Assembly (NCBI RefSeq): GCF_016595495.1
Contig: NZ_JAENIM010000016.1
Span: forward strand, 1 to 64,000
Direction: 5' to 3'
DNA from: Persicirhabdus sediminis
GTDB taxonomy: Bacteria; Verrucomicrobiota; Verrucomicrobiia; Verrucomicrobiales; Akkermansiaceae
Length of the DNA: 64,000 bases
Each line of letters begins with the position of its first letter. Positions within the stretch are counted from its first letter, which is position 1. Made by a program: the position numbers and the translations under genes. A model generated the notes under the pieces. It was not told where the DNA came from and ran no database searches. It saw only the letters and a program-made list of their open reading frames with translations. Of this stretch, positions 1 through 55,916 are shown piece after piece.

Positions 1-555
1 TGATGGATTGGACAGGTTTCGTCGAGTGGTTTAAATGAGATCATTGTCTTTTCTTGGTTAGGATTCTTAGTATTTGAGATATTTTTTGGCAGAACAGTAT
101 TGGTTCGTAGTAATGGTTGAGTGATTTAACATTTCTGCGGCGCGATTAGCCGAGGCTGCGATCATTATTTTTGTTGAGCTGGTGGGCGGGATGTTTAGCT
201 AGATTGATAGTTTTCATGATCGGAAAGGTTAAAATGGGTGATTGCCGATAGTAATGTTTTGGATAGGTGGATGGTGAAGGATGCTTTGAGATTTGATGAG
301 CTGTAGAATTAACTAAATGACTAACAAAGCTGGAAGATCGAGTAAAGCGAATGAGTGATTTATTTTTAGACAGATAGCAGAATAAGGATATGGTTGTGTT
401 CTTATGAGCAGTGTTCGTGAACAGTCTTATGGGAGGCCAGCCAAGGTGAATGGGCTGGCTGGATCAACTGCACAGCGGCGACGAGGTGGCAGCCCTGCGC
501 GTAGGTATGTTGCGGAATCGCCACCGGCTGGAGGCTCGCAGCAAGGGCCGAAGCT

Positions 556-595
556 GCATGAATCGAAATCGCATGAATCGAAATTGCATAAATCG
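556..595 (+). repeat. Tandem 15-bp direct repeat (gcatgaatcgaaatc / gcatgaatcgaaatt / gcataaatcg, about 2.6 copies) just upstream of the likely intI start
   Basis: Read directly from the sequence at 556-595. It lies within the dubious N-terminal extension of the 404-start ORF, where it would encode HESKSHESKLHKS. Confidence 0.7.
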
Positions 596-610
596 TCGCC
601 CGACGTGGCT

Positions 611-1897
611 ATGGCGGCGGGTAAGGTGTCAGCTAGGAATGAGAGGCGGTCATTTTCGGCCCCCAATCCAGAGCAGTTTGAGTGGTGGGCAGATTTATCT
701 GCCGCTAGGGATCTGACACGTCACGATAAGGCGCAGTATACATTTCTGCTTAGCTGGTTTGAGAGCTGGCGGGCGAAAAGTCACCTGGCCCCAGAGCGGG
801 CGTCGGCGGTGGGTTTCTGGCGGTCGCAGGTGCAGAGTAAAGAGCGCACTAGCTGGCAGGAAAAGCAGTGGGCTGCGATTATCAGCTGGTATTTGCGCTG
901 GCTGGAGCTGTGCCAACAGCAGGGCAAATGCTGCGAAAGTCTGGCTGGGCGGGTGCGCTCAGCAGTGGATCATGCGGGGGCTCGGCGCGGGTTAGCCTAC
1001 CGTACGCGGCTGACCTATGGTGGCTGGGCGGCGCGGTATGCGCTATGGGCTGGTAGTAGGTCTAGAGTGCTGGATACGGAGGTGGCGCGCGAGTGGTTGA
1101 GTCATTTGGTGGTGGATCGCGCGGTGGCTTTTTCTACTCAGAAGCAGGCGCTGAATGCGTTGGTATTTTTGTATAAAGATGTCTGCGGCATGGAGGAGGT
1201 GGACCTGCAGGTGCGCTTTCGTAAAAGGGCGAAGAGAATTCCTGTGGTGCTGAATCGCACTGAGTTGGCGCAGTTGTTTGCCGAGATCAAAGATCCAATG
1301 CATAGGCTAATGGCTGAGCTGCAGTATGGCTCGGGCCTGCGTCTGCGAGAGTTGCTGCAGCTGCGGGTGAAGGATATAGATCTGGAGGCCAGTACGGTAA
1401 CGGTGCGCTGTGGTAAGGGAGATAAAGATAGGGTGACGGTGCTGCCGCGTAGTTTGCAGGCGCGGCTGGAAACATTGATAGAGGAGAACCGCAAAGTCTA
1501 TCTAGCTGATCGACTAGAGCGCCAAGCGGGTGTTTATCTGCCCCCTGCGCTAGCTAGAAAAATGCCACGCGCTGGTGAACGCTGGCCGTGGTTTTGGATA
1601 TTTCCTCAGGGGAAAACGTCGCGTGATCCTGAAAGTGGTGTGGTGCGCCGCCACCATGTGGTTGCGGGCGTTTATTGTCATGCTCTGCGCGCCGCCTCGC
1701 AGCGAACGTGCATTAGCAAGCGGGTTACTAGTCATTGTTTGCGGCATAGCTTTGCGACTCACTTGCTAGAGGCTGGCACGGATATTAGAACTTTACAGAG
1801 CCTGCTAGGTCATGCGGATGTGACCACGACGATGATCTACACCCATGTGGTAGAGCGGCTCAGCCGAGCTGGTGTGATAAGTCCGTTGGACGGGTAG
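611..1897 (+). CDS. intI: Integron-type tyrosine recombinase (IntI family). The ORF is open from 404 (497 aa), but the integrase core aligns from about residue 95, so the start is more likely the ATG at 611.
   Basis: The C-terminal half reads ALARKMPRAGERWPWFWIFPQGKTSRDPESGVVRRHHV...HCLRHSFATHLLEAGTDIRTLQSLLGHADVTTTMIYTHV. This closely matches my memory of IntI1 ([21 protein letters not shown]...DPRSGVVRRHH...HTLRHSFATALL...DIRTVQDLLGH.DV.TTMIYTHV), including the extra segment between patch III and box II that separates IntI from XerC/D and phage integrases. It also has the ALNALVFLYKDV box I-like motif and GKGDKDRVTVLP. Confidence 0.75.
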   Translation: MAAGKVSARNERRSFSAPNPEQFEWWADLSAARDLTRHDKAQYTFLLSWFESWRAKSHLAPERASAVGFWRSQVQSKERTSWQEKQWAAIISWYLRWLELCQQQGKCCESLAGRVRSAVDHAGARRGLAYRTRLTYGGWAARYALWAGSRSRVLDTEVAREWLSHLVVDRAVAFSTQKQALNALVFLYKDVCGMEEVDLQVRFRKRAKRIPVVLNRTELAQLFAEIKDPMHRLMAELQYGSGLRLRELLQLRVKDIDLEASTVTVRCGKGDKDRVTVLPRSLQARLETLIEENRKVYLADRLERQAGVYLPPALARKMPRAGERWPWFWIFPQGKTSRDPESGVVRRHHVVAGVYCHALRAASQRTCISKRVTSHCLRHSFATHLLEAGTDIRTLQSLLGHADVTTTMIYTHVVERLSRAGVISPLDG

Positions 1898-7553: not shown

Positions 7554-7596
7554 GAAAAAATCCGCCTAGCTGGATTAGCTAGACGGATTTTCTGGT
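7554..7596. terminator. Bidirectional rho-independent terminator between the convergent histidine kinase and thioredoxin-like genes
   Basis: AAAAAATCCGCCTAGC-TGGATTA-GCTAGACGGATTTTCT. About 11-bp stem with one mismatch, A-tract 5' and T-tract 3'. Confidence 0.6.
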
Positions 7597-7620: not shown

Positions 7621-8547
7621 TTATTCTGCGGATTTCTTGAGCTGATTAAAATGTTCAATGGCGCGCAGCATGAGCTGGCCTGTTTCTGATTGAGCATCAA
7701 TCGCCTGGATCTCATTGGCTAGCGCGATGGCTTCGTCGAATTTCTTTTGTTCGGCGAGAGCGGCCACTTTGATGAGCATGACTTCTTGCAGGTCTTCGCC
7801 AGCTGGCTCGAACTGCTTGATGTGCTCGTCGGCAATAGTGATCATGCCATCGAAATCCTGTTTTTTATAGGCCTCTTCGACTTTTGCCTCGAGTCCAGCC
7901 ATGGCTTTCTGGCCAGCGATGTATTTGGTGAAGCCGGTCTCGTCGTTAGGGTCGGAGTCTTTGATAGCTTGAATTTGCTCGCTGTAGAACCCTGGCACAT
8001 ATTTCTGCTGCACGGGCAGGCCTGAGAGGATCTCGATGATGCGTTTTGATTTTTCCACACCTTCAAGTTTGTCGGCGGCAGCTAGGTCCTTGTCGCGTTG
8101 CACGCGGATGTCGGCCTGTTCCTTGAGGCTATCGGCAAATTCCTTGGGCGTAGCGGCGCGTTCGGATTCCGCGTACGGGCGTCCTGAAGCATCGAGCAAT
8201 AGCAGGGTGGGGAAATATTCCACGCTGTAGAGGTCGGAAAGTTTATCATTTTTTTCGCGCTGGCTGGCGTCCATTTCCTTCTGGCGAGGGAAATCGATTT
8301 CTACGAGAACGAAGGCATCTTTGAGCTGCTCGGCAAATTCCTTTTTAGAGAAGACACGCTCCTCAAGATCTACGCAAGCTCCTCACCAGTCAGAGCCAGT
8401 GAAGTTGATGAAAATGTCTTTGTTTTCCGCAGTAGCTACTTTTTTAGCAGCTTCTAGGTCTGTGAGCCAGCCGTCAGTAGAGGCTAGGGTGGCGGTGGCT
8501 GTAACGATGGAAAATCCAGCGCCAGCGAGCATGGTTTTTAGTGTCAT
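7621..8547 (-). CDS. Periplasmic thioredoxin-like protein with an in-frame TGA at 8383-8385 (minus strand) in place of the first Cys of the CxxC motif. Candidate selenocysteine protein. The C-terminal part is TPR-like/helical.
   Basis: Manual translation of the minus strand from the ATG at 8545-8547 gives MTLKTMLAGAGFSIVTATATLASTDGWLTDLEAAKKVATAENKDIFINFTGSDW-[TGA]-GACVDLEERVFSKKEFAEQLKDAFVLVEIDFPRQKE-MDASQ.... The frame runs without a break into the 217-aa ORF 7621-8274, which carries the thioredoxin-fold motif YSVEYFPTLLLLDASG. The TGA sits exactly where W-C-x-x-C is expected. Confidence 0.5.
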
Positions 8548-8702
8548 ATTAATAGAATGAGAATGCAGGCTAATAATTATTCCATGAATGGTGTGTTCGC
8601 TAGAAATTTTTTGCTAAAAATAAGTTTGCGTAGAGATTGGAGGATAATTCTTTGAAGATTTGCCTTTTCAACAGGCAAAACCAAGTCTACTCAACGTCAT
8701 CG

Positions 8703-19801: not shown

Positions 19802-20767
19802 TTAGTTGGGTTTTTCAGCGGTGGCTAGAAGTGTTTGGAAATGTGGACTTTGTTCTTCGCGGTCGACGATGGTGGTGTGGATCTTGATGAAACCTGCGTG
19901 CTCCATCATTTCCGCTAGCTCTACCTCTGAGAACCCTAACCAGACGTCGGCGTAGTGGTCGCGTGCTTTTTCAAAGTTGTGCTGTAGCAGATCGAGAATC
20001 ATCAGTTTGCCACCTGGCTGGAGGATGCGAAAAGCTTCAGCTAGGGCGCGTTCTGGCCGGTGAGCGTGGTGTAGTGCTTGTGATAAAATGGCTAGATCGA
20101 CGCTGCCGTCACTAATGGGGACCGATTCAATATCACCAAGACGGTAGTGTAGGTTAGGCAGCTCGTTAGTGACCGCTAGACGCTGGCCAAGCTCAACCAT
20201 TTTTTTGCTATTGTCTACTGCGATGACTTTTTCGGCGCTCTGAGCTAGCAGTTGGGATAAGGTGCCTTCGCCAGCGCCGAGGTCGGCGACCACACGATAA
20301 TTAAGCACTTTGATCAAGGCTTCACCTAATGATTTCCAGCTGCGTCCAGGGACGTAGTTTTTGCCAAAATTTCCAGCTAGACTATCGAAATATGCGCGAG
20401 CTTTGTCTCGGCGCTTGCGTAAAATATGTTTTAAGCTGGCGGTGTCTGAGTCGGTTTCTGGGATTTCCACCGCAGCTTGGCGAGCGACTTCCATCAACGC
20501 TGTTGGGGCGGTGATGGTATAGATGTTATTTTTTCCTGACCGACTGCTAGCGACGAGTTCTTCCTGTCTGAGCGCGGAGAGCTGAGTGGAGATGCGGCTT
20601 TGCCCCATACCGAGGATTTCCTGTAGCTCAACAACGCTGAGTGATTCGTGCTCAAGTAAGAGTAAAATGCGGATGCGAGTGGCGTCAGCTAACAATTTGA
20701 GTGATTTGAGAATGGATGCCATAGCTGGGTTATACAGAGCTGGATGTTGGGGCGAATCCACCAGCAT
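19802..20767 (-). CDS. ArsR/SmtB-family HTH regulator fused to a class I SAM-dependent methyltransferase
   Basis: N-terminal ATRIRILLLLEHESLSVVELQEILGMGQSRISTQLSAL (ArsR HTH). C-terminal VADLGAGEGTLSQLL (SAM motif I) ... ILQPGGKLMILD. Confidence 0.7.
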   Translation of the reverse strand: MLVDSPQHPALYNPAMASILKSLKLLADATRIRILLLLEHESLSVVELQEILGMGQSRISTQLSALRQEELVASSRSGKNNIYTITAPTALMEVARQAAVEIPETDSDTASLKHILRKRRDKARAYFDSLAGNFGKNYVPGRSWKSLGEALIKVLNYRVVADLGAGEGTLSQLLAQSAEKVIAVDNSKKMVELGQRLAVTNELPNLHYRLGDIESVPISDGSVDLAILSQALHHAHRPERALAEAFRILQPGGKLMILDLLQHNFEKARDHYADVWLGFSEVELAEMMEHAGFIKIHTTIVDREEQSPHFQTLLATAEKPN

Positions 20768-22366: not shown

Positions 22367-23053
22367 ATGCAGGAAATTTGGCAGCAGGCTCTACTACCGT
22401 ATAATCTACCCCTAACCATCATGCTCGGCTTTGTTGGGTTATATGTTTTTTTGTTAATTCTAGGCGCGGTAGATTTAGATTTCTTAGATTTTGATTTTGA
22501 TACCGATGGGCTCGATTCCGATTTAGATGCAGGAGGAGCTAGTGACGCTGGCTTGTTTGCTTCAGTGCTTAAGTTAGTTAACGGTTCTGACATTCCGCTG
22601 ATGTTATTGCTCAGCTTGTTCACGATTTTTATGTGGGGGGCTAACTTGTGTCTCAATTATTATTTCAACCCCGATGGCACATGGTTAGTGGCTGGCATCT
22701 TGGCTCTTGTAGCCTTTTTCATCAGTGTAATCATCATGAGGTTAGTTAGTAAGCCACTAAGTCCATTCTTGCGCTCATTCCGTGCAGGTGAAAATAATGA
22801 TGAGCCAGTTGTGGGACGTGTCGCAAAAGTGAAGTCTAGCCAACTAACTGAGAAGTATGGTCAGTTGTTAGTTCCGCGCATGAAAGGAGCGCCAGCACTA
22901 GTTAATGCAAAGCTTGAAGATGGGGCTCAAGTGGCTAATAAGGATGAATTTGTACTAGTCACAGGTAAATCAGAGGGCTTGTTTATTGCTCGTTTGGCTA
23001 GTGAGTTAGAGCGTGATGATAGTAAGGTTGCTTATGGTGATGATTGGGGTTAG
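22367..23053 (+). CDS. NfeD-like membrane protein, the usual partner of SPFH/flotillin proteins
   Basis: Several N-terminal TM helices. C-terminal OB-fold-like region VVGRVAKVKS...GQLLVPRMKGAPALVNAKLEDGAQVANKDEFVLVTGKSEGLFIARL. It lies immediately upstream of the flotillin gene. Confidence 0.6.
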   Translation: MQEIWQQALLPYNLPLTIMLGFVGLYVFLLILGAVDLDFLDFDFDTDGLDSDLDAGGASDAGLFASVLKLVNGSDIPLMLLLSLFTIFMWGANLCLNYYFNPDGTWLVAGILALVAFFISVIIMRLVSKPLSPFLRSFRAGENNDEPVVGRVAKVKSSQLTEKYGQLLVPRMKGAPALVNAKLEDGAQVANKDEFVLVTGKSEGLFIARLASELERDDSKVAYGDDWG

Positions 23054-23220
23054 GACAGTCGAATGATTGATAGATTAGCTGATCTGTTAGCGTTTAATAG
23101 ACTTCTGACTGGCTTACAAAATTCTGATCACAATGTAACAGCCTTACCTAGCGAACTACGGTAAGTTCTTTTCGAGATAGTAAATTTCACAGTAAATAGT
23201 AAGTATCAAAGTAATACAAA

Positions 23221-25332
23221 ATGATGAATGAAATAACGAATTCCTTAGGGATGATAGATGGGCTGGCGAGTTTGCCAGTATATAACTTAGCGCTCCTTTT
23301 TGAGACTATTGGACTGATAGTTCTAGCGGTGATAGGTACAGTGTTTGCCTTTTTTATCTGCCTATCAAAATGCTTTAGAAAGGTAGAGAAAGGCACCGCG
23401 ATGATTAGAACGGGTTGGGGGGAAACCAAGGTGACCTTCACGGGTATGTTTGTTTATCCAGTTTTTCACCGTGTGGAACTCATGGATATCTCTCTCAAGC
23501 GCATTGTTATTGATAGAACAGGGAAAAATGGCCTGATTTGTAAAGACAACATGCGAGCTGACATCAAGGTGGCCTTTTTTGTACGCGTGAATAATGTACG
23601 TGAAGAGGTTATTCGTGTGGCTGAGTCTATCGGTTGTGACCGCGCCTCATCTGTTGAAGAAATCCGCATTCTCTTTGATGCCAAATTCTCAGAAGCGCTT
23701 AAGACCGTAGGTAAGAAGTTCAACTTCATCGCTCTCTACGAAGAGCGTGATACCTTCCGCGATGAAATCCTCAAAGTTATCGGTACTGACCTCAATGGCT
23801 TTGTGCTCGATGATGCGGCTATTGATTACCTTGAGCAGACTCCGGTCGAGTTGCTAGATCCAGATAATATTCTCGATGCTGAAGGTATTAAAAAGATTAC
23901 TGATCTCACCGCTGATCAAGCAAAGCTGTCTAACAATATCCAGCGCGAGAAAGAAAAAGTAATCAAACAGCAAGATGTGGAAGCTCGCGAAGCAATTCTT
24001 GAGTTAGAGCGCCAGCTAGCTGAAACCGAAGCTCGTCAGGCACGTGAGGTATCTAATGCCCAAGCACGTGAAGAAGCCTCAGCTGCCAAAGTTTCTGAAG
24101 AAGAACGCCAAAAATCTGAGCAAGCTCGCATTGCTGCTGAAGAAGAAATTGGTATTTCTGAGCAGAACAAAGAGCGCCAAGTTCTCATCGCTCAACGCAA
24201 CAAAGAGCGTACAGACGTGGTGGAAGTAGAGCGTGTGAAGCGTGATCATCAACTCGAAGAGATTGAACGTCAGCGCCTCACTGAGCTTAAGAGCATTGAA
24301 AAAGATAAAGCGGTTGAAGTTCAGAAGAAAGAAATTCAAGACGTCATCAAACAGCGTGTTGCTGTTGAAAAGACTGTTGTTATCGAACAGCAGAAAATTC
24401 TCGATACCGAAGCCTTTGCGGGAGCCGACCGTTCCAAGCAAGTCAAAGTCACTCTAGCTGAAGCTGCAGCTCAGGAAGTATTGATCCAATCGGTCAAAGA
24501 AGCTGAAGCTGAGAAAGAAGCTGCTATTCTCAAGGCTGATGAAGAAATGTACAAGCGCGTGAAAGCTGCTGAAGCTGACCGCCAAGCTGCTGAGCTGCAT
24601 GCTGAAGAGGTGGTTGTTTCCGCTGACGCTGAACTAACAGCATCGGACAAACAAGCGACTGCGAAGAAAATGTTAGCTGAGGCTACTGCTAAGGAAGCTG
24701 CCGCTATTGGTCTTGGTGAAGCTGAAGTCATGTTAGCTAAAGCAGATGCTACTGAGAAGCAGGGTACTGCTGAGGCGACCGTTGAGAGACTCAAGTACCA
24801 GGCTGACGCTGACGGTATCACACAGAAGGCTGAGGCAATGAAACTGTTTGAGCAAGCTGGTCAAGTACACGAAGAATTCAAACTCAAGCTTGAGAAAGAG
24901 AAAGTAGTTGAGTTGGCTGAAATTGACGTTCAACGTCAGATTGCTGAGCAACAAGCTCTCGTTGTTGGTGAAGCGCTTAAGAGCGCGAAAATCGACATCG
25001 TTGGTGGAGAAACTCAGTTCTTCGATCGCATTACTAACGCTATCACTACTGGTAAGGTGGTTGATCGTACCGTGGAAAATAGCCAAGTTATCGGCGATGT
25101 TAAAGAGACCTTCTTCAATGGTGACCCTGAGTACTTCAAAGCTCAAGTATCTACTTGGATTGATCAATTTGGTGTATCCACTGAGGACATCAAAAATCTC
25201 TCAGTTGGCGGTCTGCTAGGTAAGCTGATTGTTCAGTCTAATGGTGATGACCGTGACAAGCTCATGGGATTCCTTGGCGCTGCTGAGCGATATGGAGTGA
25301 AGGACCTTAAGGCGTCCAACTTCATTAAATAA
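23221..25332 (+). CDS. Flotillin-like SPFH/band-7 protein (YqiK/FloT-like) with a long Glu/Ala/Lys-rich coiled coil
   Basis: N-terminal TM, SPFH core (AMIRTGWGETKVTF...ISLKRIVIDRTGKNGLICKDNMRADIKVAFFVRV), then about 300 aa of heptad-rich EA repeats. Confidence 0.8.
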   Translation: MMNEITNSLGMIDGLASLPVYNLALLFETIGLIVLAVIGTVFAFFICLSKCFRKVEKGTAMIRTGWGETKVTFTGMFVYPVFHRVELMDISLKRIVIDRTGKNGLICKDNMRADIKVAFFVRVNNVREEVIRVAESIGCDRASSVEEIRILFDAKFSEALKTVGKKFNFIALYEERDTFRDEILKVIGTDLNGFVLDDAAIDYLEQTPVELLDPDNILDAEGIKKITDLTADQAKLSNNIQREKEKVIKQQDVEAREAILELERQLAETEARQAREVSNAQAREEASAAKVSEEERQKSEQARIAAEEEIGISEQNKERQVLIAQRNKERTDVVEVERVKRDHQLEEIERQRLTELKSIEKDKAVEVQKKEIQDVIKQRVAVEKTVVIEQQKILDTEAFAGADRSKQVKVTLAEAAAQEVLIQSVKEAEAEKEAAILKADEEMYKRVKAAEADRQAAELHAEEVVVSADAELTASDKQATAKKMLAEATAKEAAAIGLGEAEVMLAKADATEKQGTAEATVERLKYQADADGITQKAEAMKLFEQAGQVHEEFKLKLEKEKVVELAEIDVQRQIAEQQALVVGEALKSAKIDIVGGETQFFDRITNAITTGKVVDRTVENSQVIGDVKETFFNGDPEYFKAQVSTWIDQFGVSTEDIKNLSVGGLLGKLIVQSNGDDRDKLMGFLGAAERYGVKDLKASNFIK

Positions 25333-25494: not shown

Positions 25495-28400
25495 ATGAAC
25501 AAGATGTCAGAGGAACAAGAGAATAATCAGCTAGAGAGTGGAGCTTACGAGGTGATCCGTGCCCGTATGGCCAAACATGGTACTGAGCTGCAGCAGCGCT
25601 TGAATCAGCTCAATGATGAACGCCGCGATGTGTTCGGTTCAATTGAGCCAGCTTTGTTAGCCACTGAGCGAATTAGTACACAGCACAATTGTGTCTCTCG
25701 CGATATGGTTTCTATCGGCAAGAACCGCTTCATCTTTGGTTATAACATTCACTTTGGCCTCAAACAGACTACAGAGTTAGGCGATGTTTTTGACCTCTAC
25801 GAATATCATCCAGCAGATCACACTTTTCATAAGTTAGATGAAGCTGAGTTATTTGGCGCTGAGTTTGAGGAAGATTTTAAATCACTGTACAAATATTATA
25901 AAGATACCGTCTTTGTAAAATTCATGGTGATTGGCCCTCATCTTTTCATGGGCATGCGAGTCGGCAAAGAGCTGACTAACATTAAGTGCTTCAAGTGGCT
26001 TCTCAAAGGTGATGGATCGCTCGATTACCTTGGAAACCGCTCAGATCACGAATATGTCTTTCCTCAGCAGCAAGAATTCCAGTGGAAGCGCGCGCATCGC
26101 GACATGCAGCGTTCTGGTGAGCACCCACACGTTTCTATCGAGGATAGATTGTTTGTTGAAACGGTTGGTGGTGATCTAACGATCAAGATCGAAGACAATA
26201 CAGAGACTGGCCAAGGGATTTACGAGGAATTGGTAGATGATCCAGATCAGACTCTCGACGATGCTGAGATTTTATACGCTACCGTGGGGCCGTTGATAGT
26301 TCTCAAGGTGCTGCCATACCGTGAAGAGCACTATCGATACCTTGTCTATAATGAGAAAACTCAGACGGTGGTGCGCTGTGACGCAATTGGCCATTCTTGT
26401 GTTCTATTGCCAGATGACCACGGATTGATATTTGCTAACGGCTATCTCTTGCTCAGTGGCGAGTTCAAAACCTTCGATCATGGTTTGCTCGATATGCGCT
26501 TTGAAAAGCGTATTGTTAGCGCCAATGGTGAGGATACATTTTTTGTTTTCTATAATCGTCAGAGTGGTGATTACGTTCTGCTTTCTTATAATCTAATTAC
26601 ACGCAGTATTGATACGCCTGTTATCTGTAGTGGTTATTCGTTATTTGAAAATGGTCGCCTGCTGTATTTCCGCAACGAAGATGAAGCGCAGAAACATCAT
26701 GTGATTCAGATTTGGCAAACGCCATACATCAATGATGAATATCAGACGCTAGAGACTGCTGGTAATGGCTCATTTATTAGCAAAATCGGCAACCAAGATA
26801 TCGTGCGCTGTATGTCCGAATGCCGTGAGGTATTGGGCCTGCTCGGTAAAGACGATTCATACGCCGACCTATATCTCGATTTGGTTAAGAAAACTGGCGA
26901 CCTCGTTGATGCTTATTTCTGGCTCAATAAAGACGAGATGTTTGATCTAGCTGAACCACTCAGCGAGATCAATGCTGCTGCTAGATCAGCGGTTGAGGAA
27001 TTTGAAAAAGTCCTCGAGCTGAGGAATTCAGCTAAACAAAAGACAGACGATTTAGAGTCTGCAGCGAAAGAGCTCATTCGTGAAATCGAGCACTCACCAG
27101 CTGATGATATCATTGGTTTTGTTAATCACCTAGCTCAGCTGAGACGGATGCGTGGTGAGGTGATAGGGCTTCGTGATTTGCGTTATAATGAGCCAGCTAG
27201 AATTGATCTCATCGAGCAAAGCTTGGTTGAGCAGATTCAGATTTTGTCCGATCTCACAGTGAAGTTTTTGCTCACGGAAGAAGCGCTCGATCCATATCGT
27301 GAGGCGGTTCAGTCGCAGAGTGAGGCGGTTAAAAATCTCGAGAAGGTAGCTGATGCTGATGCAACAGGGGCTGAGTTAGACAAAGCTGGCTCTGAATTAG
27401 AGATGCTGATCGAAATTGTCAGCAATCTCAAAATCGATGACGCGACCAAAACGACGGCAATCATCGAAAGCATTTCAGAGATTTATTCTACACTGAATGC
27501 GGTGCGGGCATCTCTCAAAGGGAAGCGCCACGATCTAGCAAAGTCGGAAGGTGTAGCGCAGTTTGCCGCGCAAATGAAGTTGTTGGGGCAAGCGGTGGTC
27601 AACTTCCTAGACCTTTGTGACACGGCTGAGAAGTGTGACGAATACCTCACCAAGGTGATGGTGCAGATTGAGGAGCTGGATGGAAAATTCTCTGAGTTTG
27701 ATGAATACCTCGAGCAGCTAGCCGCCAAGCGTGAGGAGGTTTACGACGCTTTTGAGGCGCGCAAGGTTGCCTTGCTAGAGAAACGCAACAAGCGTGCTAA
27801 CAACCTGATCAAGTCCGCTGAACGTATTCTTACTGGGGTGAGAAACCGTGCAGCATCATTTGCTGAAATCAATGAGATTAACGGCTATTTTGCTGGCGAC
27901 TTGATGGTTTCCAAGGTGCGTGAAATTATTGACGAGTTAGATGAGCTCGGAGACAGCGTGAAGGCTGCCGACATTCAAACTCGTTTGAAGACACTGCGTG
28001 AAGATGCGGTGCGTCAGCTGAAAGATAGAAACGAGCTCTTTGTTGATGGGACTAACATCATTCAGTTTGGTAAGCATCAATTCACGGTTAATACTCAAGA
28101 GCTTGAGTTAACTGTGGTGCCGCAAGGTGATGAAATGAGTTTCCATCTAGCGGGAACTGATTTCTTTGAGCGAATTGACGATCCTGATTTTTTGAAGACC
28201 CGCTCAGTGTGGTCACAGGAGTTAGTTTCTGAAAATCGTGCAGTGTATAGATCTGAATATCTGGCTTATTTATACCTTTTGCATGCTGAAGAAAATGGCC
28301 AGCTAGAAGTTTCTGATGATCTGCTCAGCCAGGTTCAGGCATTTGCTAACAATAGATACTCTGAGGGCTACACTAAAGGGGTTCATGATCATGATGCTGA

Positions 28401-30603
28401 GTTGATTTTGCGTAAGTTACTGCCCATGCACAATGAAGTGGGTATGCTGAGGTACAGCCCCGCTGTACGCGCTTTTGCGATGCTTTTCTGGAAGCAATGG
28501 CATCATGAAGATAAAAGCCAGCTAGAGGTGAAGCTCAGAGCTCAGGGCATGGTGGAGGCAGTTTTTGTTTCTGTTGATAGAAACGAGCGCAAAAAGTACC
28601 AAGCGGAACTAGAGCGTGAAATTGACAAGTTTGCTGGTAGCCAGAATTTGAACTCAGTGACTATCGTTCAACGCGCTGCGGAATATTTGATCGCGCATTT
28701 TGCTAGAGCTGAGAGTTTTGAAATTTCCAGCCAAGCCGCTGAATGGGTGCAGAAGTTCCACACAACATTGAGTGCGAAGCGCGTGGGTGACCAATACGAT
28801 AATTCTCTAGCTGAGTTAGATGGAAATGTTATTGGCCAGTACCAAGTGATTGGAGCTTGGTTGCGTGGATTTGCAGCGAGTGTGACCGACGACTTGGACG
28901 CATACAATGCTGAGCTGCAGATGATGTATTTGCAGGAGGCTGCTGCCCATCTGCTGTATGGTGGCCATGACCCTAAATCAGTAGTTAGGGTGGAGTTGAT
29001 GGCTGAATGTGAGGGTTTATTAGGGCAACACGCAGTAGTTAGTGATGGGAAATATCATTTCCACTATAATTTATTCATCCGTAAGATGCTAGATTTTAGC
29101 CAGTACGATGTGCCAGTCTATCAATCATACCAGGAAACGAAGTCACAGTTGTTGGAGCTCAAGCGCGATGAGATGCGTCTCGACGAATTTAAACCACGTG
29201 TGATGTCATCATTTGTCCGTAACCGTCTACTCAACGAGGTGTATCTGCCAATTATTGGAGACAATCTAGCGAAACAGATGGGTACAGCTGGCAAAGATAC
29301 CCGCACAGATAGAATGGGCATGTTATTGCTCATCTCTCCTCCAGGTTATGGTAAGACCACTTTGATGGAGTATATCGCCGATAGACTTGGCATTACTTTC
29401 ATGAAGATCAATGGGCCAGCTCTGGGGCACGAGGTGAAGTCGCTAGATCCAGCTGAAGCTCCTAACGCATCAGCGCGTGAGGAGGTTCAGAAACTTAACT
29501 TAGCTCTGGAGATGGGGGATAATGTCATGATTTACCTCGATGATATCCAGCATACACACTCTGAGTTTTTGCAGAAGTTCATCTCGTTATGTGATGGTCA
29601 GCGCAAGATCGAAGGTGTCTATAAAGGTCAGGCAAAGACTTATGATCTGCGAGGTAAGAAGGTAGCCGTAGTGATGGCGGGTAACCCTTATACAGAGACT
29701 GGTGGTAAGTTCCAGATTCCTGATATGTTAGCCAACCGCGCTGACACCTATAACTTAGGTGATATTCTGGGGGGCCATGAAGCTGCCTTTAAGGCGTCCT
29801 ATATTGAGAACTCACTGACATCTAACGCTGTACTGTCAAAACTTAGTAGTCGCAGCCAGCAAGATGTCTATGCGGTGATGAAGTTAGTAGAGGGGGCTCC
29901 TCGTGATGAGATTGATTTTGAGGCACCGTTTTCCGCCTCGGAAGTTGAAGATTTTATTCGTGTTATGACACATCTCTATAGAGTTAGAGATTCCATTCTT
30001 CGGGTAAACCTAGAGTACATCCACAGTGCGGCTCAGGAAGATAATTACCGCGTGGAGCCAGCATTCAAGCTACAGGGTTCCTACCGTAATATGAACCGTA
30101 TCGCTGAGAAGGTGATTCCTCTGATGACTGATGAAGAAGTTAGCGAGCTCGTGATCAGTCACTACGAGAGTGAGTCGCAGACCTTAACGACGGGTGCGGA
30201 GGCTAACCTTTTAAAGTTCAAAGAAATGGAGGGGATACAAACCGCTAGCGAATCAGCACGTTGGCAGGAGATCAAAGATGAGTTTTCTAAACAGAAACTT
30301 CTCGGTGGAGCTGGTGATGATGATCCCGTGGCTAGGGTGGTCGCTCAGATGTCTCAGTTCAATGATGGTCTCTCAGCTATCAATGGTGGATTGCAATCAT
30401 TAGGTTCTGTCTTCACCGCTCCCAAGCAGCTAGATGATCCAACACTTGCTAAAATTGAGTCGCTCATTAGTGGGTTGCGTTCAGTGCCTGTACAGGTCGA
30501 TATTAAAGTAGTACCTGTGCAAGAACAGTCATCCGTTAGCCCAAAAAATACGGATGATGGCAAAATGGTTGATATCGAACCTGAAGTGAGACAGCTTGAG
30601 TGA
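25495..30603 (+). CDS. Giant (1702 aa) coiled-coil protein with a C-terminal AAA+ ATPase domain, of the kind often annotated 'DNA repair ATPase'
   Basis: Walker A LLISPPGYGKTTLMEYIADRLG, Walker B MIYLDDIQH, arginine-finger region VVMAGNPYTETGGKFQIPDMLANRADTYNLG. A long α-helical/coiled-coil middle section. The N-terminal about 450 aa is β-rich. Confidence 0.7.
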   Translation: MNKMSEEQENNQLESGAYEVIRARMAKHGTELQQRLNQLNDERRDVFGSIEPALLATERISTQHNCVSRDMVSIGKNRFIFGYNIHFGLKQTTELGDVFDLYEYHPADHTFHKLDEAELFGAEFEEDFKSLYKYYKDTVFVKFMVIGPHLFMGMRVGKELTNIKCFKWLLKGDGSLDYLGNRSDHEYVFPQQQEFQWKRAHRDMQRSGEHPHVSIEDRLFVETVGGDLTIKIEDNTETGQGIYEELVDDPDQTLDDAEILYATVGPLIVLKVLPYREEHYRYLVYNEKTQTVVRCDAIGHSCVLLPDDHGLIFANGYLLLSGEFKTFDHGLLDMRFEKRIVSANGEDTFFVFYNRQSGDYVLLSYNLITRSIDTPVICSGYSLFENGRLLYFRNEDEAQKHHVIQIWQTPYINDEYQTLETAGNGSFISKIGNQDIVRCMSECREVLGLLGKDDSYADLYLDLVKKTGDLVDAYFWLNKDEMFDLAEPLSEINAAARSAVEEFEKVLELRNSAKQKTDDLESAAKELIREIEHSPADDIIGFVNHLAQLRRMRGEVIGLRDLRYNEPARIDLIEQSLVEQIQILSDLTVKFLLTEEALDPYREAVQSQSEAVKNLEKVADADATGAELDKAGSELEMLIEIVSNLKIDDATKTTAIIESISEIYSTLNAVRASLKGKRHDLAKSEGVAQFAAQMKLLGQAVVNFLDLCDTAEKCDEYLTKVMVQIEELDGKFSEFDEYLEQLAAKREEVYDAFEARKVALLEKRNKRANNLIKSAERILTGVRNRAASFAEINEINGYFAGDLMVSKVREIIDELDELGDSVKAADIQTRLKTLREDAVRQLKDRNELFVDGTNIIQFGKHQFTVNTQELELTVVPQGDEMSFHLAGTDFFERIDDPDFLKTRSVWSQELVSENRAVYRSEYLAYLYLLHAEENGQLEVSDDLLSQVQAFANNRYSEGYTKGVHDHDAELILRKLLPMHNEVGMLRYSPAVRAFAMLFWKQWHHEDKSQLEVKLRAQGMVEAVFVSVDRNERKKYQAELEREIDKFAGSQNLNSVTIVQRAAEYLIAHFARAESFEISSQAAEWVQKFHTTLSAKRVGDQYDNSLAELDGNVIGQYQVIGAWLRGFAASVTDDLDAYNAELQMMYLQEAAAHLLYGGHDPKSVVRVELMAECEGLLGQHAVVSDGKYHFHYNLFIRKMLDFSQYDVPVYQSYQETKSQLLELKRDEMRLDEFKPRVMSSFVRNRLLNEVYLPIIGDNLAKQMGTAGKDTRTDRMGMLLLISPPGYGKTTLMEYIADRLGITFMKINGPALGHEVKSLDPAEAPNASAREEVQKLNLALEMGDNVMIYLDDIQHTHSEFLQKFISLCDGQRKIEGVYKGQAKTYDLRGKKVAVVMAGNPYTETGGKFQIPDMLANRADTYNLGDILGGHEAAFKASYIENSLTSNAVLSKLSSRSQQDVYAVMKLVEGAPRDEIDFEAPFSASEVEDFIRVMTHLYRVRDSILRVNLEYIHSAAQEDNYRVEPAFKLQGSYRNMNRIAEKVIPLMTDEEVSELVISHYESESQTLTTGAEANLLKFKEMEGIQTASESARWQEIKDEFSKQKLLGGAGDDDPVARVVAQMSQFNDGLSAINGGLQSLGSVFTAPKQLDDPTLAKIESLISGLRSVPVQVDIKVVPVQEQSSVSPKNTDDGKMVDIEPEVRQLE

Positions 30604-42159: not shown

Positions 42160-42978
42160 TTGAAATTTAGTATTTCTCAATGGGGGAAAGCGTTCTATGT
42201 ATTCGTCAGGATGGAGTCTGTACTCATAACATTGGCAAGTATTGTAGCGCTTATCGTGACCGTAATGGGTGCGCGATATGTGCACGTAGGTGAGCGTTCG
42301 CAATGGACCTTACCATTGATGATAGTAGTTTTTGCGCTGCAGCTTAGTGAGTTGGGTATTCGAGGTGAGGCTCGAGCAGCCTGTCCGCTGATGGATATTG
42401 GCGAGATTTGTATTTTTGCAGCGTGGTCGCTGACGATGTTTTATTTGATGGTGGGCTCGGTTTACCGTTTGTCTTTGTTGGGGGTATTTACTGCACCGCT
42501 TGTTTTGGTATTGATGTTGGCGGCGCTGGTTCCCGGTGCGCTGGATGCAGATCCACAGCCGGTGAGTGACCATCAGGGGGCTACGGCGATTCATTCTGCG
42601 CTGTCGGTTTTATCTTATGGCGCTTTTGGATTGGCGGCAGTTTCTGCGGTAATGTTTTTGGTTTTAGACAAGCAGCTGAAGGGTGGGCACCCAAGCACTG
42701 GCTTATTTAGAAACCTGCCACCTATTCATTCTCTGACACAAAGCGTGGCTCGGTTGCTATTCCTTGGGCTGATTCTTTTATCTGTGGGGGTGATCTTTGG
42801 ATTCACTGCAGCCTATGAAGGCGGAATCAGTAATCACCTCTGGTTGGCGACTGCTGTGTGGATTGGTTATCTTGTTTTGTTGTCAGTTTGGCAATTTCGT
42901 GGCATGCCGCCGCGGACATTCTCAATCACCGCTGTCTTTCTCTTTGTGTTTTCACTCGTTATTTTCCCACTGCTCTAA
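42160..42978 (+). CDS. HemX/CcsA-like integral membrane protein (cytochrome c assembly family) in the hemAXCD position
   Basis: Eight TM helices. The stop overlaps the hemA start (TAATG). The position matches Bacillus hemX. Confidence 0.5.
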   Translation: MKFSISQWGKAFYVFVRMESVLITLASIVALIVTVMGARYVHVGERSQWTLPLMIVVFALQLSELGIRGEARAACPLMDIGEICIFAAWSLTMFYLMVGSVYRLSLLGVFTAPLVLVLMLAALVPGALDADPQPVSDHQGATAIHSALSVLSYGAFGLAAVSAVMFLVLDKQLKGGHPSTGLFRNLPPIHSLTQSVARLLFLGLILLSVGVIFGFTAAYEGGISNHLWLATAVWIGYLVLLSVWQFRGMPPRTFSITAVFLFVFSLVIFPLL

Positions 42979-43979
42979 TGAATTTAATCTGTCTCGGTCT
43001 GAACCATCAGAGCGCGCCAGTTGAGTTGCGCGAACGATTTGCTGTGCCCGACGGCCTGCTGGGGGATGAGGGTGCGAAGTTGACTGAGCTCAACGACGTG
43101 GCTGAAGGTGTGGTGATTTCTACCTGTAATAGGATGGAAATCTATGTGGCTGTGGAGGACTTAGAGCTTGGATCTAAGGTGCTGCGCAATTATCTCGAAG
43201 AAACTCGTGGGCTCGATCACGCTAGCGCTGAGCATTTCTATGAAAAGCACAGTGTGGAGGCTGCTCAGCATCTATGCCGTGTGGTCAGCGGGCTGGATTC
43301 CATGGTTCTTGGTGAGACCGAGATCTTTGGTCAGGTGAAGCAGGCGTATAAGCAGGCGCTGGATAAGGGGGCGACTAAGGGAGTGCTGAACCGCTTGTTC
43401 CAGAAATCTTTTGGTGTGGGCAAAAAAGTGCGCACGCAGACGGATATCCAACGCGGGCAAACATCAGTAGGCTCGGTGGCGGTTGATCTTGCTGAGAAGA
43501 TTTTTGGCAAACTCAAAGACTGCAGCGTGATGATGATTGGCGCTGGAGAGATGGGGCGTACCACTTCGCAGAGTTTTATGTCTCGCGGCGCTAAGGAGCT
43601 GTTTGTTACCAACCGTTCATTGGATAAAGCTGTAGATCTAGCTGGCAGCTTAGGCGGCACAGCAGTGGCTTTTGATGAATGGGAGGATGTGCTGGCTAAG
43701 GTGGATGTGGTGGTTTCCTCGACAGGAGCTCAACATCCAGTATTACTGGCTGAGCACGTGCAGAAGGTGCGCAGGAAACGTAAATACAAACCGCTCTTCC
43801 TGATTGATATTGCCGTGCCTCGCGACATTGACCCAGCTACTGGTGAGATCGAAGAAGTTTACCTCTACGACATGGACCAGCTGCAAGAGCTGGCGGCTGA
43901 CGCGCGCGAGAGACGCCTCGAGCAGGTACGCATTTGCGACGAAATCATTAAAGAGGAAGTAGAAAAAATGCTCGGCTAG
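42978..43979 (+). CDS. hemA: Glutamyl-tRNA reductase. The ORF is open from 42858. The start was chosen as the MNLICLGLNHQ ATG at 42978.
   Basis: LGLNHQSAPVELRE, VISTCNRMEIY (catalytic Cys), GAGEMG NADPH fold. Confidence 0.9.
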   Translation: MNLICLGLNHQSAPVELRERFAVPDGLLGDEGAKLTELNDVAEGVVISTCNRMEIYVAVEDLELGSKVLRNYLEETRGLDHASAEHFYEKHSVEAAQHLCRVVSGLDSMVLGETEIFGQVKQAYKQALDKGATKGVLNRLFQKSFGVGKKVRTQTDIQRGQTSVGSVAVDLAEKIFGKLKDCSVMMIGAGEMGRTTSQSFMSRGAKELFVTNRSLDKAVDLAGSLGGTAVAFDEWEDVLAKVDVVVSSTGAQHPVLLAEHVQKVRRKRKYKPLFLIDIAVPRDIDPATGEIEEVYLYDMDQLQELAADARERRLEQVRICDEIIKEEVEKMLG

Positions 43980-43983
43980 CTGG

Positions 43984-44949
43984 GTGCAAAACAAATTTAA
44001 AAACATGAGTGATGGACAAGCAATTTTCAAGGTAGGGACACGCGGAAGCGCCCTAGCACTAGTGCAGGCTGAAATGACAGAATCTGCGCTGCGTGAAAAA
44101 TTTTCCCAGCTGGAATACCAGCGTGTGGTGATCAAAACGATTGGCGACAAGCGCACGGATGTGCCTTTGAAAGACGTCGCCAAAGTGGAAGGTGTGCTCG
44201 ATAAGGGAGTTTTCACTAAAGAGCTGGAAATTGCTCTGCTGGCTAAGGAAGTCGACGTGGCCGTTCACAGCCTTAAGGATGTGCCAACCGTGCTGGATGA
44301 TGAATTTGAAATTGCTGGCGCGCTGGAGCGAGCTCCACTGCGTGATGTTTTGGTCTGTGCTCAGGCTGGTGGTCTCGATGCCTTGCCAAAAGGTGCGCGC
44401 GTCGGCACAAGCAGTGTGCGCCGTCAAAAGCAGCTGCTTTACCTACGTCCGGACCTCGAGCTGGTTGACATCCGTGGCAATGTGCCGACTCGGCTAGAAA
44501 AGCTGATCAAAGAAGATTACGATGCCATCATGCTAGCTGAAGCTGGTTTGGTGCGACTGGGTTATTCAATCGACGGTGAGCTGGAAATTCCAGCTGGCGT
44601 GGTTTACCCGCAAGCGCTCGATCCAGCTGAGTTTTTGCCAGCTGCAAGTCAGGGCATTGTTGGATTTGAAATCCGCAGCGATGACGAAGAATCACGTAAG
44701 ATTGTGGAGGGGGTGACGCATTACGAATCCATGATGCAGGCGCTAGCTGAACGCGAGTTTTTACGCCTGATCGACGGCGGCTGTCATACTCCAGTGGGTG
44801 TGTATACTCAGCTGATTGACGGTCAGCTTGTGATGGCGGCGCGTGTTTTCCCAGACGAAGGAAACGAGCCGCCAAAAGAATCAAAAGCATCTGGTCCAAT
44901 CGACCAGCCGTTGGTCGTTGGTGGTGAACTTTTTGCAAAACTAGCATGA
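43984..44949 (+). CDS. hemC: Porphobilinogen deaminase (hydroxymethylbilane synthase)
   Basis: KVGTRGSALALVQA, the dipyrromethane cofactor Cys context GGCHTPVG. Confidence 0.9.
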   Translation: MQNKFKNMSDGQAIFKVGTRGSALALVQAEMTESALREKFSQLEYQRVVIKTIGDKRTDVPLKDVAKVEGVLDKGVFTKELEIALLAKEVDVAVHSLKDVPTVLDDEFEIAGALERAPLRDVLVCAQAGGLDALPKGARVGTSSVRRQKQLLYLRPDLELVDIRGNVPTRLEKLIKEDYDAIMLAEAGLVRLGYSIDGELEIPAGVVYPQALDPAEFLPAASQGIVGFEIRSDDEESRKIVEGVTHYESMMQALAEREFLRLIDGGCHTPVGVYTQLIDGQLVMAARVFPDEGNEPPKESKASGPIDQPLVVGGELFAKLA

Positions 44950-46457
44950 GTAAGCAGGGGATTTGTTATTTAACCGGTGGCGGGCCAGGTGACATTGGAC
45001 TGGTCACTCTGAAGGCGCGTGATCGAATTGCTGAAGCTGACGTGCTGGTCTACGACGCGTTGAGCAGCGTTGAGCTTCTCAGCTGGACCAAGGCAGATTG
45101 CGAAAAAATCAACGTTGGCAAGCGCGCCAACAAGCACACCTTACCGCAGGAGCAGATCAACGCGCTGCTGGTGGAAAAAGTGGCTGCAGGGAATAAAGTC
45201 GTGCGCCTGAAAGGTGGCGATCCGATGATCTTCGGGCGCGGCGGTGAAGAGGCTGAAGCTCTGGCTGCAGCTGGATTGCGCTTTGAGGTGATTCCTGGAA
45301 TTTCCTCTGCGCTAGCAGGACCAGTCTACGCTGGCATTCCGCTCACTCACCGCGAACATGGCGCTCAGGTGACAATTTTCTCTGGCCACGAGGCTGAGGG
45401 GAAAGAATCGAGTGGCGTCGACTACGAGCTGCTGGCAAAAACTCGCGGCTGCAAAGTTTTCCTCATGGGGGTGTCGCAGATTGAGCGCATTACTAGTGAG
45501 TTTATCAAATACGGTGCAGACGCTGATACGCCAATCACGCTCACTCGCTGGGCGACGACTGGTAGGCAAAAAACCATCCGTGGCACGCTGGCTACTATCG
45601 TAGACATCGTTAAAGAACAAAATTTTAAAGCTCCAGCTGTTGGGGTGATAGGCAACATTATCGAGAAAATGGACAAGATTCAATGGTATGAAAACCGCCC
45701 ACTTCTGGGCAAACGCATCGTGGTGACAAGAACTCAGATGCAGTCGAGCAGACTGAGTAAAAAGCTCACTGACATTGGTGCCGACGTGCTCGAGCTGCCA
45801 GTGATTCGGGTGGCAGATCCAAGTGATCGCCAAGGATTTGCCGAAGGGGTGGCACACGCGCACACCTACGACTGGCTCGTTTTCACTAGTCCAAATGGAG
45901 TGGAGCGATTCTTCGAGGCCTTTTTTGCCACCTACGCGGATGCGCGTAGCATCGGCGGCTGTCGTATTGCAGCTCTCGGACCAGGTACGGCTGAAAAAAT
46001 CAAAGCGTATCGATTTGCTACTGATTTGATCCCAGATCGCCACATCGCCGAAGGGCTGGTTGAGGCATTTGAGAAAAATGAAAATATCGAAAACCAAACG
46101 GTGCTCTGGGTTCGCCCAGAAAATGCTCGTCCAGTGCTCGGTGACGGATTGGCCAAACAAGGCGCCATCGTCGATGAATGCATCGCTTACAAAATTGAGG
46201 CCGAAACCGAAGATCCAACGGGTGCTGCCAAACGATTTGCCGAAGAAGGTGCTGATTTGGTGACTTTCACCAGCTCGTCAACCGCAAGACATTTCAAAGA
46301 CCTCGAGCTGCCGTGGCCAGCTGAATGCAAAGCTGCCAGCATCGGCCCTCAAACCAGCGGCACGCTCAAAGAGCTAGGCTTCGAAATTGGTACAGAAGCC
46401 AGCCCTCACAACCTAGACGGCCTCGTCGAGGCTATCGTTGAGCTGCTCGGCGAGTAG
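44946..46457 (+). CDS. Fusion of uroporphyrinogen-III C-methyltransferase (CobA) and uroporphyrinogen-III synthase (HemD)
   Basis: N-terminus GICYLTGGGPGDIGLVTLKA...VLVYDAL...GGDPMIFGRG (SUMT). The C-terminal half is HemD-like. Confidence 0.8.
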   Translation: MSKQGICYLTGGGPGDIGLVTLKARDRIAEADVLVYDALSSVELLSWTKADCEKINVGKRANKHTLPQEQINALLVEKVAAGNKVVRLKGGDPMIFGRGGEEAEALAAAGLRFEVIPGISSALAGPVYAGIPLTHREHGAQVTIFSGHEAEGKESSGVDYELLAKTRGCKVFLMGVSQIERITSEFIKYGADADTPITLTRWATTGRQKTIRGTLATIVDIVKEQNFKAPAVGVIGNIIEKMDKIQWYENRPLLGKRIVVTRTQMQSSRLSKKLTDIGADVLELPVIRVADPSDRQGFAEGVAHAHTYDWLVFTSPNGVERFFEAFFATYADARSIGGCRIAALGPGTAEKIKAYRFATDLIPDRHIAEGLVEAFEKNENIENQTVLWVRPENARPVLGDGLAKQGAIVDECIAYKIEAETEDPTGAAKRFAEEGADLVTFTSSSTARHFKDLELPWPAECKAASIGPQTSGTLKELGFEIGTEASPHNLDGLVEAIVELLGE

Positions 46458-50739: not shown

Positions 50740-50846
50740 TATACATAACTAAACACAGTTGGTTTTCATCAAATGCATATAAAAATTTGGCGGAAGTAAA
50801 ATTCCGTTGATACACCCCATAAATAAAAACAAAATATAATACGAAT

Positions 50847-51254: not shown

Positions 51255-51290
51255 TACCTGAGTTTTTTGACTCAACCTATTATTTCTTAG

Positions 51291-51326
51291 TCCCCTTCCT
51301 GGTATAGGGAAGGGGATTATTTTTAT
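51291..51326 (+). terminator. Rho-independent terminator after the pseudopilin gene
   Basis: CCCCTTCC-tggtatag-GGAAGGGG then ATTATTTTTAT. Confidence 0.55.
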
Positions 51327-51352
51327 CGCGATCCCATTACTGAATTATTGTT

Positions 51353-53104: not shown

Positions 53105-53119
53105 GATTATTCAGAAACG

Positions 53120-54240: not shown

Positions 54241-54325
54241 TATTTAACCCCAGGGCCCCCCTTAATAACACCCAAATACATATATAAGGGAATACCCCCA
54301 CACATAGGTAACTAAAAATAATACG

Positions 54326-55897: not shown

Positions 55898-55916
55898 TTT
55901 TAGGTTGTTTAATTTA

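Follow-up and report, generated by a model that had tools for sequence, protein, structure and literature searches.

The stretch of DNA analysed here (the window, 64 kb of the Verrucomicrobiota species Persicirhabdus sediminis) carries on its minus strand a frame of 309 codons, from an ATG at 8547-8545 to a TAA at 7623-7621, whose sole internal stop is a TGA at codon 55 (8385-8383), and we interpret it as very probably one gene for an exported selenoprotein. Around codon 55 the translation reads DIFINFTGSDW, stop, GACVDLEERVF. Mechanical calling of open reading frames (ORFs) breaks the frame into a 54-amino-acid (aa) ORF (8383-8547) and a 217-aa ORF (7621-8274), a gene caller produced the same two fragments in a second assembly (GCA_947496435.1), and the NCBI annotation covers the C-terminal 217 aa alone, in a 100% identical P. 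sediminis record named 'hypothetical protein'. An earlier inspection of the letters alone, below called the sequence-only reading, had described this ATG, the in-frame TGA running into the 217-aa ORF and the splitting of the gene by ORF callers, and had proposed that the TGA encodes selenocysteine (Sec) in a thioredoxin-like protein; its coordinates and translation match ours. Of the 32 TGA-split frame pairs in the window, all but the proposed selenoprotein gene are shadow frames over other genes, and a scan of all such pairs found no second selenoprotein gene there. The features of the locus are listed in Table 1.

Table 1. Coordinates of the proposed selenoprotein gene and of the elements in and around it (window positions)
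Feature	Position	Strand	Basis
Complete coding sequence of the proposed selenoprotein, 308 residues plus TAA, Sec at codon 55	7621..8547	-	Frame; thioredoxin domain across the TGA; full-length alignment with homologs of about 320 aa; AlphaFold2 model as one continuous chain
Probable Sec-type (secretory) signal peptide, codons 1-23, MTLKTMLAGAGFSIVTATATLAS	8479..8547	-	Lys4, hydrophobic core and small residues before Thr24; predicted from sequence
UGA codon 55, proposed to be read as selenocysteine	8383..8385	-	Aligns with the invariant first Cys of CxxC; same codon is TGA in at least 36 relatives and in a second P. sediminis genome
Redox motif U-G-A-C, codons 55-58, with Cys58 as TGC at 8376-8374	8374..8385	-	Sequence and homolog alignment
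SECIS-like upper hairpin GAGGAG-CGUGU-CUUCUC, 6-bp stem, 5-nt loop, G at loop position 2, beginning 24 nt after the UGA	8348..8364	-	Folding; pairing in the clade
Extended SECIS-like element with lower stem, nt 7-58 from the U of UGA, -15.2 kcal/mol	8328..8379	-	Constrained fold under published criteria; the unconstrained minimum-free-energy fold has the same helices
DsbH/DsbD-gamma-like thioredoxin fold, residues 27-130	8158..8469	-	Pfam Thioredoxin_7, Thioredoxin_2 and Thioredoxin; PDB 2ju5 by sequence and fold
C-terminal all-helical domain, residues 134-307, nine helices	7627..8148	-	AlphaFold2 secondary structure
Intrinsic terminator, 17-bp stem with U-run, A-run on the other flank	7555..7593	-	Folding, -24.3 kcal/mol, z=-6.58; equalled by 0/200 shuffles
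Candidate sigma-70-like promoter, TTGAAA-16-AATTAT, some 97 nt before the ATG	8644..8671	-	Weak, 9/12 consensus match

The TGA occupies the position of a redox-active cysteine. In an alignment with 27 full-length homologs it sits in the column of the first Cys of FTGSDW-C-x-x-C, exactly where the sequence-only reading had expected the motif cysteine; Cys is found there in 27/27 homologs, FTGSDW and the second Cys are likewise invariant, and the window protein has Ala for the near-invariant Trp of C-G-W-C. Besides the truncated record, the other 119 of the best 120 matches listed are 'thioredoxin family' proteins of 277-439 aa, mostly 30-43% identical. With codon 55 translated as Cys, residues 27-120 match Pfam Thioredoxin_7 (E=4.9e-15), and the joined protein also matches Thioredoxin_2 and Thioredoxin. 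Because these matches cross the TGA, a single domain straddles the stop.

The same TGA recurs in many relatives. A pattern scan with TTYACNGGNWSNGAYTGGTGANNNNNNTGY, covering one genome for each of 185,579 species, returned at least 50 stretches, about 8 of which would be chance matches as estimated from the information content of the pattern. Family members account for at least 36 of the 50: they carry F-T-G-[ST]-D-W-TGA-x-x-C (the Cys as TGY) and a signal-peptide-like N-terminus, their frames run 89-295 aa past the TGA through conserved thioredoxin-fold motifs, and nearly all come from Verrucomicrobiota or Planctomycetota assemblies. At the site in question the homologs carry either Cys or a TGA with the frame continuing, as a Sec/Cys pairing had been anticipated in the sequence-only reading. 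The P. sediminis locus was not among the 50 stretches although the window fits TTYACNGGNWSNGAYTGGTGANNNNNNTGY, either because there are more than 50 matches or because another genome stands for the species in the scan, and the true total of TGA-bearing members (Sec forms) is probably above 36. In a neighbour-joining tree of 27 non-redundant Sec-form and 70 cysteine-bearing (Cys-form) domains, the Sec forms make up several clades with at least six changes of state, and the same TGA is present across at least six clades. The window gene and the relatives L006, L016 and L040 constitute an all-Sec clade; because their thioredoxin domains are only about 50-58% identical, the UGA has been kept over a long divergence.

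A sequencing or assembly error could produce such a stop, as a single-base difference from a true TGC or TGT would suffice. This explanation is in effect refuted by the second P. sediminis genome, an independent assembly from another sample (63/6654 mismatches, about 0.95% divergent) that keeps TGA at codon 55, and by the presence of TGA in orthologs and paralogs from dozens of unrelated assemblies. Reassignment of UGA was also rejected, TGA being the ordinary stop for 7 of the 40 long ORFs in the window.

A pseudogene would likewise show an interrupted frame: a recent nonsense mutation from TGC or TGT to TGA in a Cys-type thioredoxin-like gene, with the flanking conservation as a residue. The annotation of just a 217-aa hypothetical protein, the lack of visible Sec machinery in the window and the loss of the near-invariant Trp of CGWC, which leaves GAC, would all accord with decay. 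We nevertheless regard a pseudogene as strongly disfavoured and very improbable. Apart from the recurrence of the TGA in at least 36 relatives and at least six clades, including the clade of the window gene, the gene differs between the two P. sediminis genomes by 13 synonymous and 0 nonsynonymous changes (P=2.7e-9 under neutrality, with 78% of sites nonsynonymous), the proportion of nonsynonymous differences (pN) lies far below that of synonymous differences (pS) in codons 24-91, and the TGA-bearing forms have a specific, covarying hairpin described below. The Trp loss is itself general among Sec forms: at the second x of the x-x dipeptide (8377-8382 in the window) Trp is found in 56/70 non-redundant Cys forms vs 2/27 non-redundant Sec forms, in which GG, PY, GA, GY, GF, RA and other dipeptides replace G-W. 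Because the loss is typical of Sec forms, the G-A of the window protein is not a sign of decay; judging by these sequence comparisons, the different dipeptides of the Sec forms indicate a co-adapted active site instead. The Sec-linked loss of Trp may reflect redox tuning or a constraint on the mRNA near the UGA.

We compared the window gene with L006, L016 and L040 in the segments that are translated only if the UGA is decoded. In codons 24-54, 18-22 of 31 residues are identical (58-71%), with pN of 0.16-0.31 vs pS of 0.75-0.85. In codons 56-91, 20-21 of 36 residues are identical (about 56-58%), with pN of 0.28-0.30 vs pS of 0.62-0.74. Both segments are conserved at least as much as codons 92-127, and residues 56-130 are 48-51% identical to the Sec orthologs. 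Purifying selection is seen on both sides of the UGA, and the conservation upstream of the Met at 8274 (Met92), on which the sequence-only proposal depended, is present.

These values bear on the alternative that the annotation is right, that is, that translation ends at the UGA, leaving the 217-aa protein from Met92 as the functional product, perhaps together with a 54-aa secreted peptide. Gene finders call both ORFs, and 12 of the 13 synonymous strain differences fall within the 217-aa ORF, so that the strain comparison alone cannot separate read-through from internal initiation at Met92. But the 27 aligned Cys-form homologs show no conservation of Met92. AlphaFold2 predicts the fold as a single unit, and a 217-aa product would lack its redox motif, active-site helix and strand beta-1 as well as the signal peptide. 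Codons 56-91, moreover, are in neither ORF and are conserved all the same. We consider it highly unlikely that the annotated ORF is the whole functional product. The public record almost certainly truncates the gene, whose true product would be a 308-residue exported thioredoxin-like enzyme with Sec for the first active-site Cys.

Immediately 3' of the UGA, the mRNA can form a hairpin resembling a bacterial selenocysteine insertion sequence (SECIS). The sequence-only reading had found no convincing SECIS by eye, but a hairpin is present at 8364-8348 and fits the published bacterial model, which requires a loop of 3-9 nucleotides (nt), an upper stem of 4-16 base pairs (bp), a G in the first two loop positions, a spacing of 16-37 nt and a folding free energy (dG) of no more than -7.5 kcal/mol (PMC13188914). 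The corresponding values for the window element are a spacing of 24 nt, a stem of 6 bp, the loop CGUGU and, for the extended structure, a dG of -15.2 kcal/mol. Like the elements on which the bSECISearch model is built (prototype, Escherichia coli fdhF), it lies within the ORF, directly downstream of the UGA and within the 16-37-nt spacing, and has a small apical loop with G followed by U. It has no primary-sequence similarity to these elements, and its binding by SelB is a prediction. Rfam gave no meaningful match to the hairpin. The GGUC loop of several relatives in the family resembles the apical loop of fdhF.

The hairpin is a property of the Sec forms. As a control we used Cys-form domains fetched from metagenomes (95, of which 70 were non-redundant), which are subject to the same amino-acid constraints. 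A strict hairpin geometry, defined as a stem of at least 5 bp, GU in a 3-8-nt loop, a loop within nt 19-36 and a dG of at most -4, was found in 20/27 Sec forms vs 3/70 Cys forms (Fisher p=4e-12), and the mean dG of the best hairpin was -6.3 in Sec forms vs -3.5 in Cys forms (p=7e-5). The offset and sequence of the hairpin vary by clade: the usual loops are CGUGN(N), GGUC(U) or GUY, with a start at nt 22 for one Planctomycetota group and nt 28-31 for the Verrucomicrobiota groups. Pairing is kept within each group. In the clade of the window gene, 24/24 cells (stem positions over the four sequences) are paired and both sides have changed in 2 of 6 pairs; the double changes, AU to GC and GC to CG, are in L040 and entail E/K-to-G and F-to-L substitutions in the protein. 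In a Planctomycetota group, 56/56 cells are paired and 1 of 7 pairs has changed on both sides (a CG to GC flip), while in a third group 30/30 cells are paired with double changes in 3 of 6 pairs, a score equalled by 1/500 shuffles. When the 3' partner was slid by 1-3 columns in the three register-matched subgroups, pairing fell from 100% to 17-75%.

A number of observations weigh against selenocysteine insertion at this UGA. The published SECIS criteria are loose: they are passed by 22/27 Sec forms and also by 28/70 Cys forms, a difference that is still significant (p=2e-4; mean dG -11.7 vs -4.8, p=2.5e-6). Taken by itself, the window hairpin is weak, as the 6-bp stem contributes just -4.2 kcal/mol, the 71-nt fold has a z of -1.39 and an equivalent hairpin arises in 3.9% of mononucleotide shuffles. 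The covariation samples are small (4-8 sequences), and 35/500 shuffles equal the score of the window clade. By inspection, no obvious Shine-Dalgarno sequence precedes the ATG at 8547. The clustering of strain differences in the 217-aa ORF, mentioned above, belongs here as well. Searches of the window with ARAGORN and Rfam found a tRNA-Leu only and no tRNA-Sec, and no tRNA-Sec was found in 37 related loci; tblastn with E. coli SelA, SelB and SelD as queries gave nothing relevant in the window or in any of the 131 fetched loci; and Pfam analysis of 42 window ORFs revealed no selenium-related gene. Nothing was found on Persicirhabdus in the literature. Selenium incorporation at residue 55 is predicted from sequence.

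Several of these points would also suit a UGA that is decoded, though not as Sec: by near-cognate read-through (as Trp, Cys or Arg) or as Cys via tRNA(Sec), in which case the hairpin would stimulate read-through in general. Purifying selection together with a downstream hairpin fits any programmed recoding, and the Sec machinery was not located in the window or the fetched loci. The recoded site, in contrast, is the catalytic Cys of a CxxC motif and makes a classical Sec/Cys pair, of which UxxC families have been tabulated (PMC13188914, PMC2398784); the hairpin geometry and its G/U loop fit the SelB-dependent bacterial model; TGA serves as a normal stop elsewhere in the window; and complete Sec machinery is documented in some Planctomycetes (PMC4807772). 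Decoding of the UGA as an amino acid other than Sec is accordingly improbable in our judgement.

The joined protein is predicted to be exported and to have two domains. Residues 1-22 are disordered in the AlphaFold2 model (predicted local distance difference test, pLDDT, below 50), and the homologs have equivalent leaders. Using a 28-sequence alignment and the joined sequence, AlphaFold2 gave a pLDDT of 91.3 and a predicted template modelling score (pTM) of 0.82. Among solved structures the closest in sequence is 2ju5 (E=4.2e-15), whose motif is FTGSDWCMWC, and the same entry ('DsbH Oxidoreductase') is the best fold match, with a template modelling (TM) score of 0.73 normalised to the target and a root-mean-square deviation (rmsd) of 2.3, followed by DsbD-gamma domains. 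The hydrophobic leader and the model's closest match to a periplasmic reductase are in keeping with the periplasmic, thioredoxin-like protein with signal peptide that the sequence-only reading had envisaged. The C-terminal helical domain is conserved in L006 and L016 and absent from L040; some homologs have precomputed Pfam matches to tetratricopeptide repeats (TPR), which makes the domain TPR-like in some. In having an N-terminal thioredoxin fold followed by a helical repeat (TPR) domain, the window protein is like E. coli YbbN/CnoX (3QOU; Foldseek E=3.5e-4), but the whole-chain superposition is poor (rmsd 20.9) and YbbN is cytoplasmic and is not known to have a canonical CxxC; the analogy is architectural only.

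DsbH is a reducing periplasmic dithiol oxidoreductase that resembles thioredoxin and DsbD-gamma and that had not been reported outside chlamydiae in 2016 (PMC5193440). The window protein shares with Chlamydia DsbH (2JU5; NF043050, 'disulfide reductase DsbH') the FTGSDWCxWC-type signature, a predicted export and membership of the Planctomycetes-Verrucomicrobia-Chlamydiae (PVC) superphylum. Its version of the signature is FTGSDW-U-G-A-C, with Sec for Cys and Ala for Trp, whereas DsbH has Cys instead of Sec and is a single domain of about 150-170 aa that lacks the helical C-terminal domain of about 175 aa. NF043050 is the top NCBIfam match, at 81.3 bits, and seven Sec-form relatives score 69-123 bits against it, reaching no cut-off. 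Because its 81 bits fall under the curated cut-off of 190, the window protein is not a DsbH equivalog; the fold model suggests that it works like DsbH all the same.

Among bacterial selenoproteins the dominant class is that of thioredoxin-fold UxxC proteins, and we compared the window protein with the described families. It scores only 18-42 bits against the curated thioredoxin-type '(seleno)protein' NCBIfam models, whose cut-offs are 275-805. Two kinds of these, the Trx7/PDZ (seleno)protein NF041199 and the VPGUxxT families NF041382/NF041383, are likewise curated selenoproteins on a Thioredoxin_7-like fold and gave weak matches (E=5e-6 to 1e-3), but they differ in bit score (18-26 for the window protein vs cut-offs of 275-350), in Sec motif (CxxU and VPGU) and in partner domains. 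For NF041199 in particular, the window protein reaches 25.7 bits vs at least 300, its motif is UxxC instead of CxxU, and it has no PDZ domain. It does fall within the definition of the 'thiol:disulfide interchange protein' selenoprotein family (PF13098, UxxC), with 44.4 bits against a gathering threshold of 27 and the motif U-G-A-C. According to the tables that list them, this family has been known since 2004, and 'Trx-like 2 (cd02953)' proteins occur in ocean metagenomes (PMC13188914, PMC2398784). Like that family, the window protein has Sec at the first Cys of a DsbD-gamma/Thioredoxin_2-type fold, and Cys homologs far outnumber Sec forms; the entries as tabulated make no mention of FTGSDW, a helical C-terminal domain or a PVC distribution, the comparison with the WP_011366075.1 family being at the level of its table entry. 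Within the table of prokaryotic selenoprotein families in a 2026 review, no entry combines a Thioredoxin_7 or DsbH domain with UxxC. A Sec-containing thioredoxin (PF00085, UxxC) is given there as experimentally characterised (PMC13188914, citing Kim et al. 2015). It resembles the window protein in having Sec at the attacking position of a thioredoxin-fold CxxC and an in-ORF bacterial SECIS, but it is a cytoplasmic, single-domain protein, while the window protein, a member of the Thioredoxin_7/DsbH branch with an extra domain, is predicted to be exported.

Taken together, the Cys/TGA pairing in homologs, the conservation flanking the UGA, the second assembly and the hairpin fitting the SECIS model support the selenoprotein interpretation first made from the letters alone. 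We favour, with a probability of roughly 0.88, a single gene whose product is an exported selenoprotein of 308 residues, namely a DsbH-like thiol-disulfide oxidoreductase with Sec as the N-terminal active-site residue (U55-G-A-C58). In the mechanism that we propose, a ribosome arriving at UGA-55 would encounter the in-coding-sequence hairpin (8364-8348, loop CGUGU) 24 nt downstream, which would recruit SelB-GTP-Sec-tRNA(Sec), and Sec would be inserted in place of termination. The signal peptide would carry the protein across the inner membrane, and in the periplasm the Sec-x-x-Cys pair would cycle between selenolate/thiol and selenenylsulfide. Envelope proteins could thereby have their disulfides, or other oxidised cysteines, reduced or shuffled, the role that DsbH plays in Chlamydia, and the probable function of the C-terminal helical domain is to bind substrates or a partner. 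An electron donor would presumably be involved; no DsbD/CcdA transmembrane homolog was found near any family member.

The Sec/Cys thioredoxin-fold UxxC type is already well known, and current understanding is not overturned. This gene and its many Verrucomicrobiota and Planctomycetota relatives match no curated NCBIfam model. The truncated annotation probably arose because the Sec form of the DsbH-like family is covered by no curated model. The P. sediminis gene is truncated or split in the public record, and apparently the same error affects dozens of Verrucomicrobiota and Planctomycetota genomes. A corrected annotation would imply that P. sediminis decodes Sec and would bring a periplasmic redox enzyme into the picture of its envelope. 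Relatives with the FTGSDWCxWC signature are abundant across the PVC superphylum, in contrast to the 2016 report of DsbH as unknown outside chlamydiae (PMC5193440).

Somewhat more tentatively, and at less than even odds, the Sec forms may represent an uncurated and perhaps undescribed PVC-wide family of DsbH-like periplasmic selenoproteins, with about six or more Cys/Sec exchanges, an in-ORF SECIS built in each clade through amino-acid changes, and a Sec-linked loss of Trp. If so, selenium would re-tune the redox centre and make the Trp of C-G-W-C dispensable or disfavoured. The family offers many natural Sec/Cys pairs with differing dipeptides, which could be used to ask what selenium changes in a CxxC centre, and it is also suited to studying how a SECIS evolves inside protein-coding constraint.

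Among individual members, the Planctomycetota metagenome-assembled genome (MAG) CAZANL01 has two different Sec-form paralogs (L023 and L044), each with its own GGUC- or GUC-loop hairpin; the presence of the two paralogs implies that this organism decodes UGA as Sec more than once in the family. The orthologs have no synteny common to them. Synteny with tRNA genes is kept inside particular Sec clades and is not shared with the window: a tRNA-Asn lies within 0.3-2 kb of the selenoprotein gene in L008, L010, L026, L035 and L047 (a Planctomycetota-type group), and a tRNA-Gly within the same distance in L019, L032, L042 and L048 (short Verrucomicrobiota forms).

In the window, the selenoprotein gene is a stand-alone unit, with a convergent histidine-kinase/response-regulator pair downstream and a diverging topoisomerase gene upstream. 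The terminator in Table 1, which a consensus terminator scan missed and direct folding found, lies between the convergent ends of the histidine kinase gene (7531) and the selenoprotein gene (7621) and is possibly bidirectional, serving the histidine-kinase gene as well. At the left edge of the window is a phage-type integrase (404-1897, plus strand; 16379-18335 in L134), and the contig of an independent MAG ends about 460 nt beyond the integrase, which suggests that a mobile element or repeat at this place breaks assemblies.

Further along the window, a single minus-strand ORF (19802-20767) combines an ArsR-type helix-turn-helix with an S-adenosylmethionine-dependent methyltransferase domain and showed no in-frame TGA; known selenoprotein and metalloid-handling families include the arsenite methyltransferases. 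The remaining observations concern the plus strand. An ORF of 1702 aa (25495-30603) contains DUF3686 ('ATPase involved in DNA repair', E=2.6e-183), DUF7902 and a C-terminal AAA domain, and is preceded by two ORFs without a Pfam match (22367-25332). A haem biosynthesis cluster (42160-46457) encodes a CcsA-like cytochrome c assembly protein, hemA, hemC and a fused uroporphyrinogen methylase/HemD. A type II secretion or type IV pilus-like cluster (49471-61805) encodes two T2SSE ATPases, a secretin and T2SSF, as well as a pilin-like ORF with a prepilin-type N-terminus (59915-60316), with several ORFs without a Pfam match interspersed.

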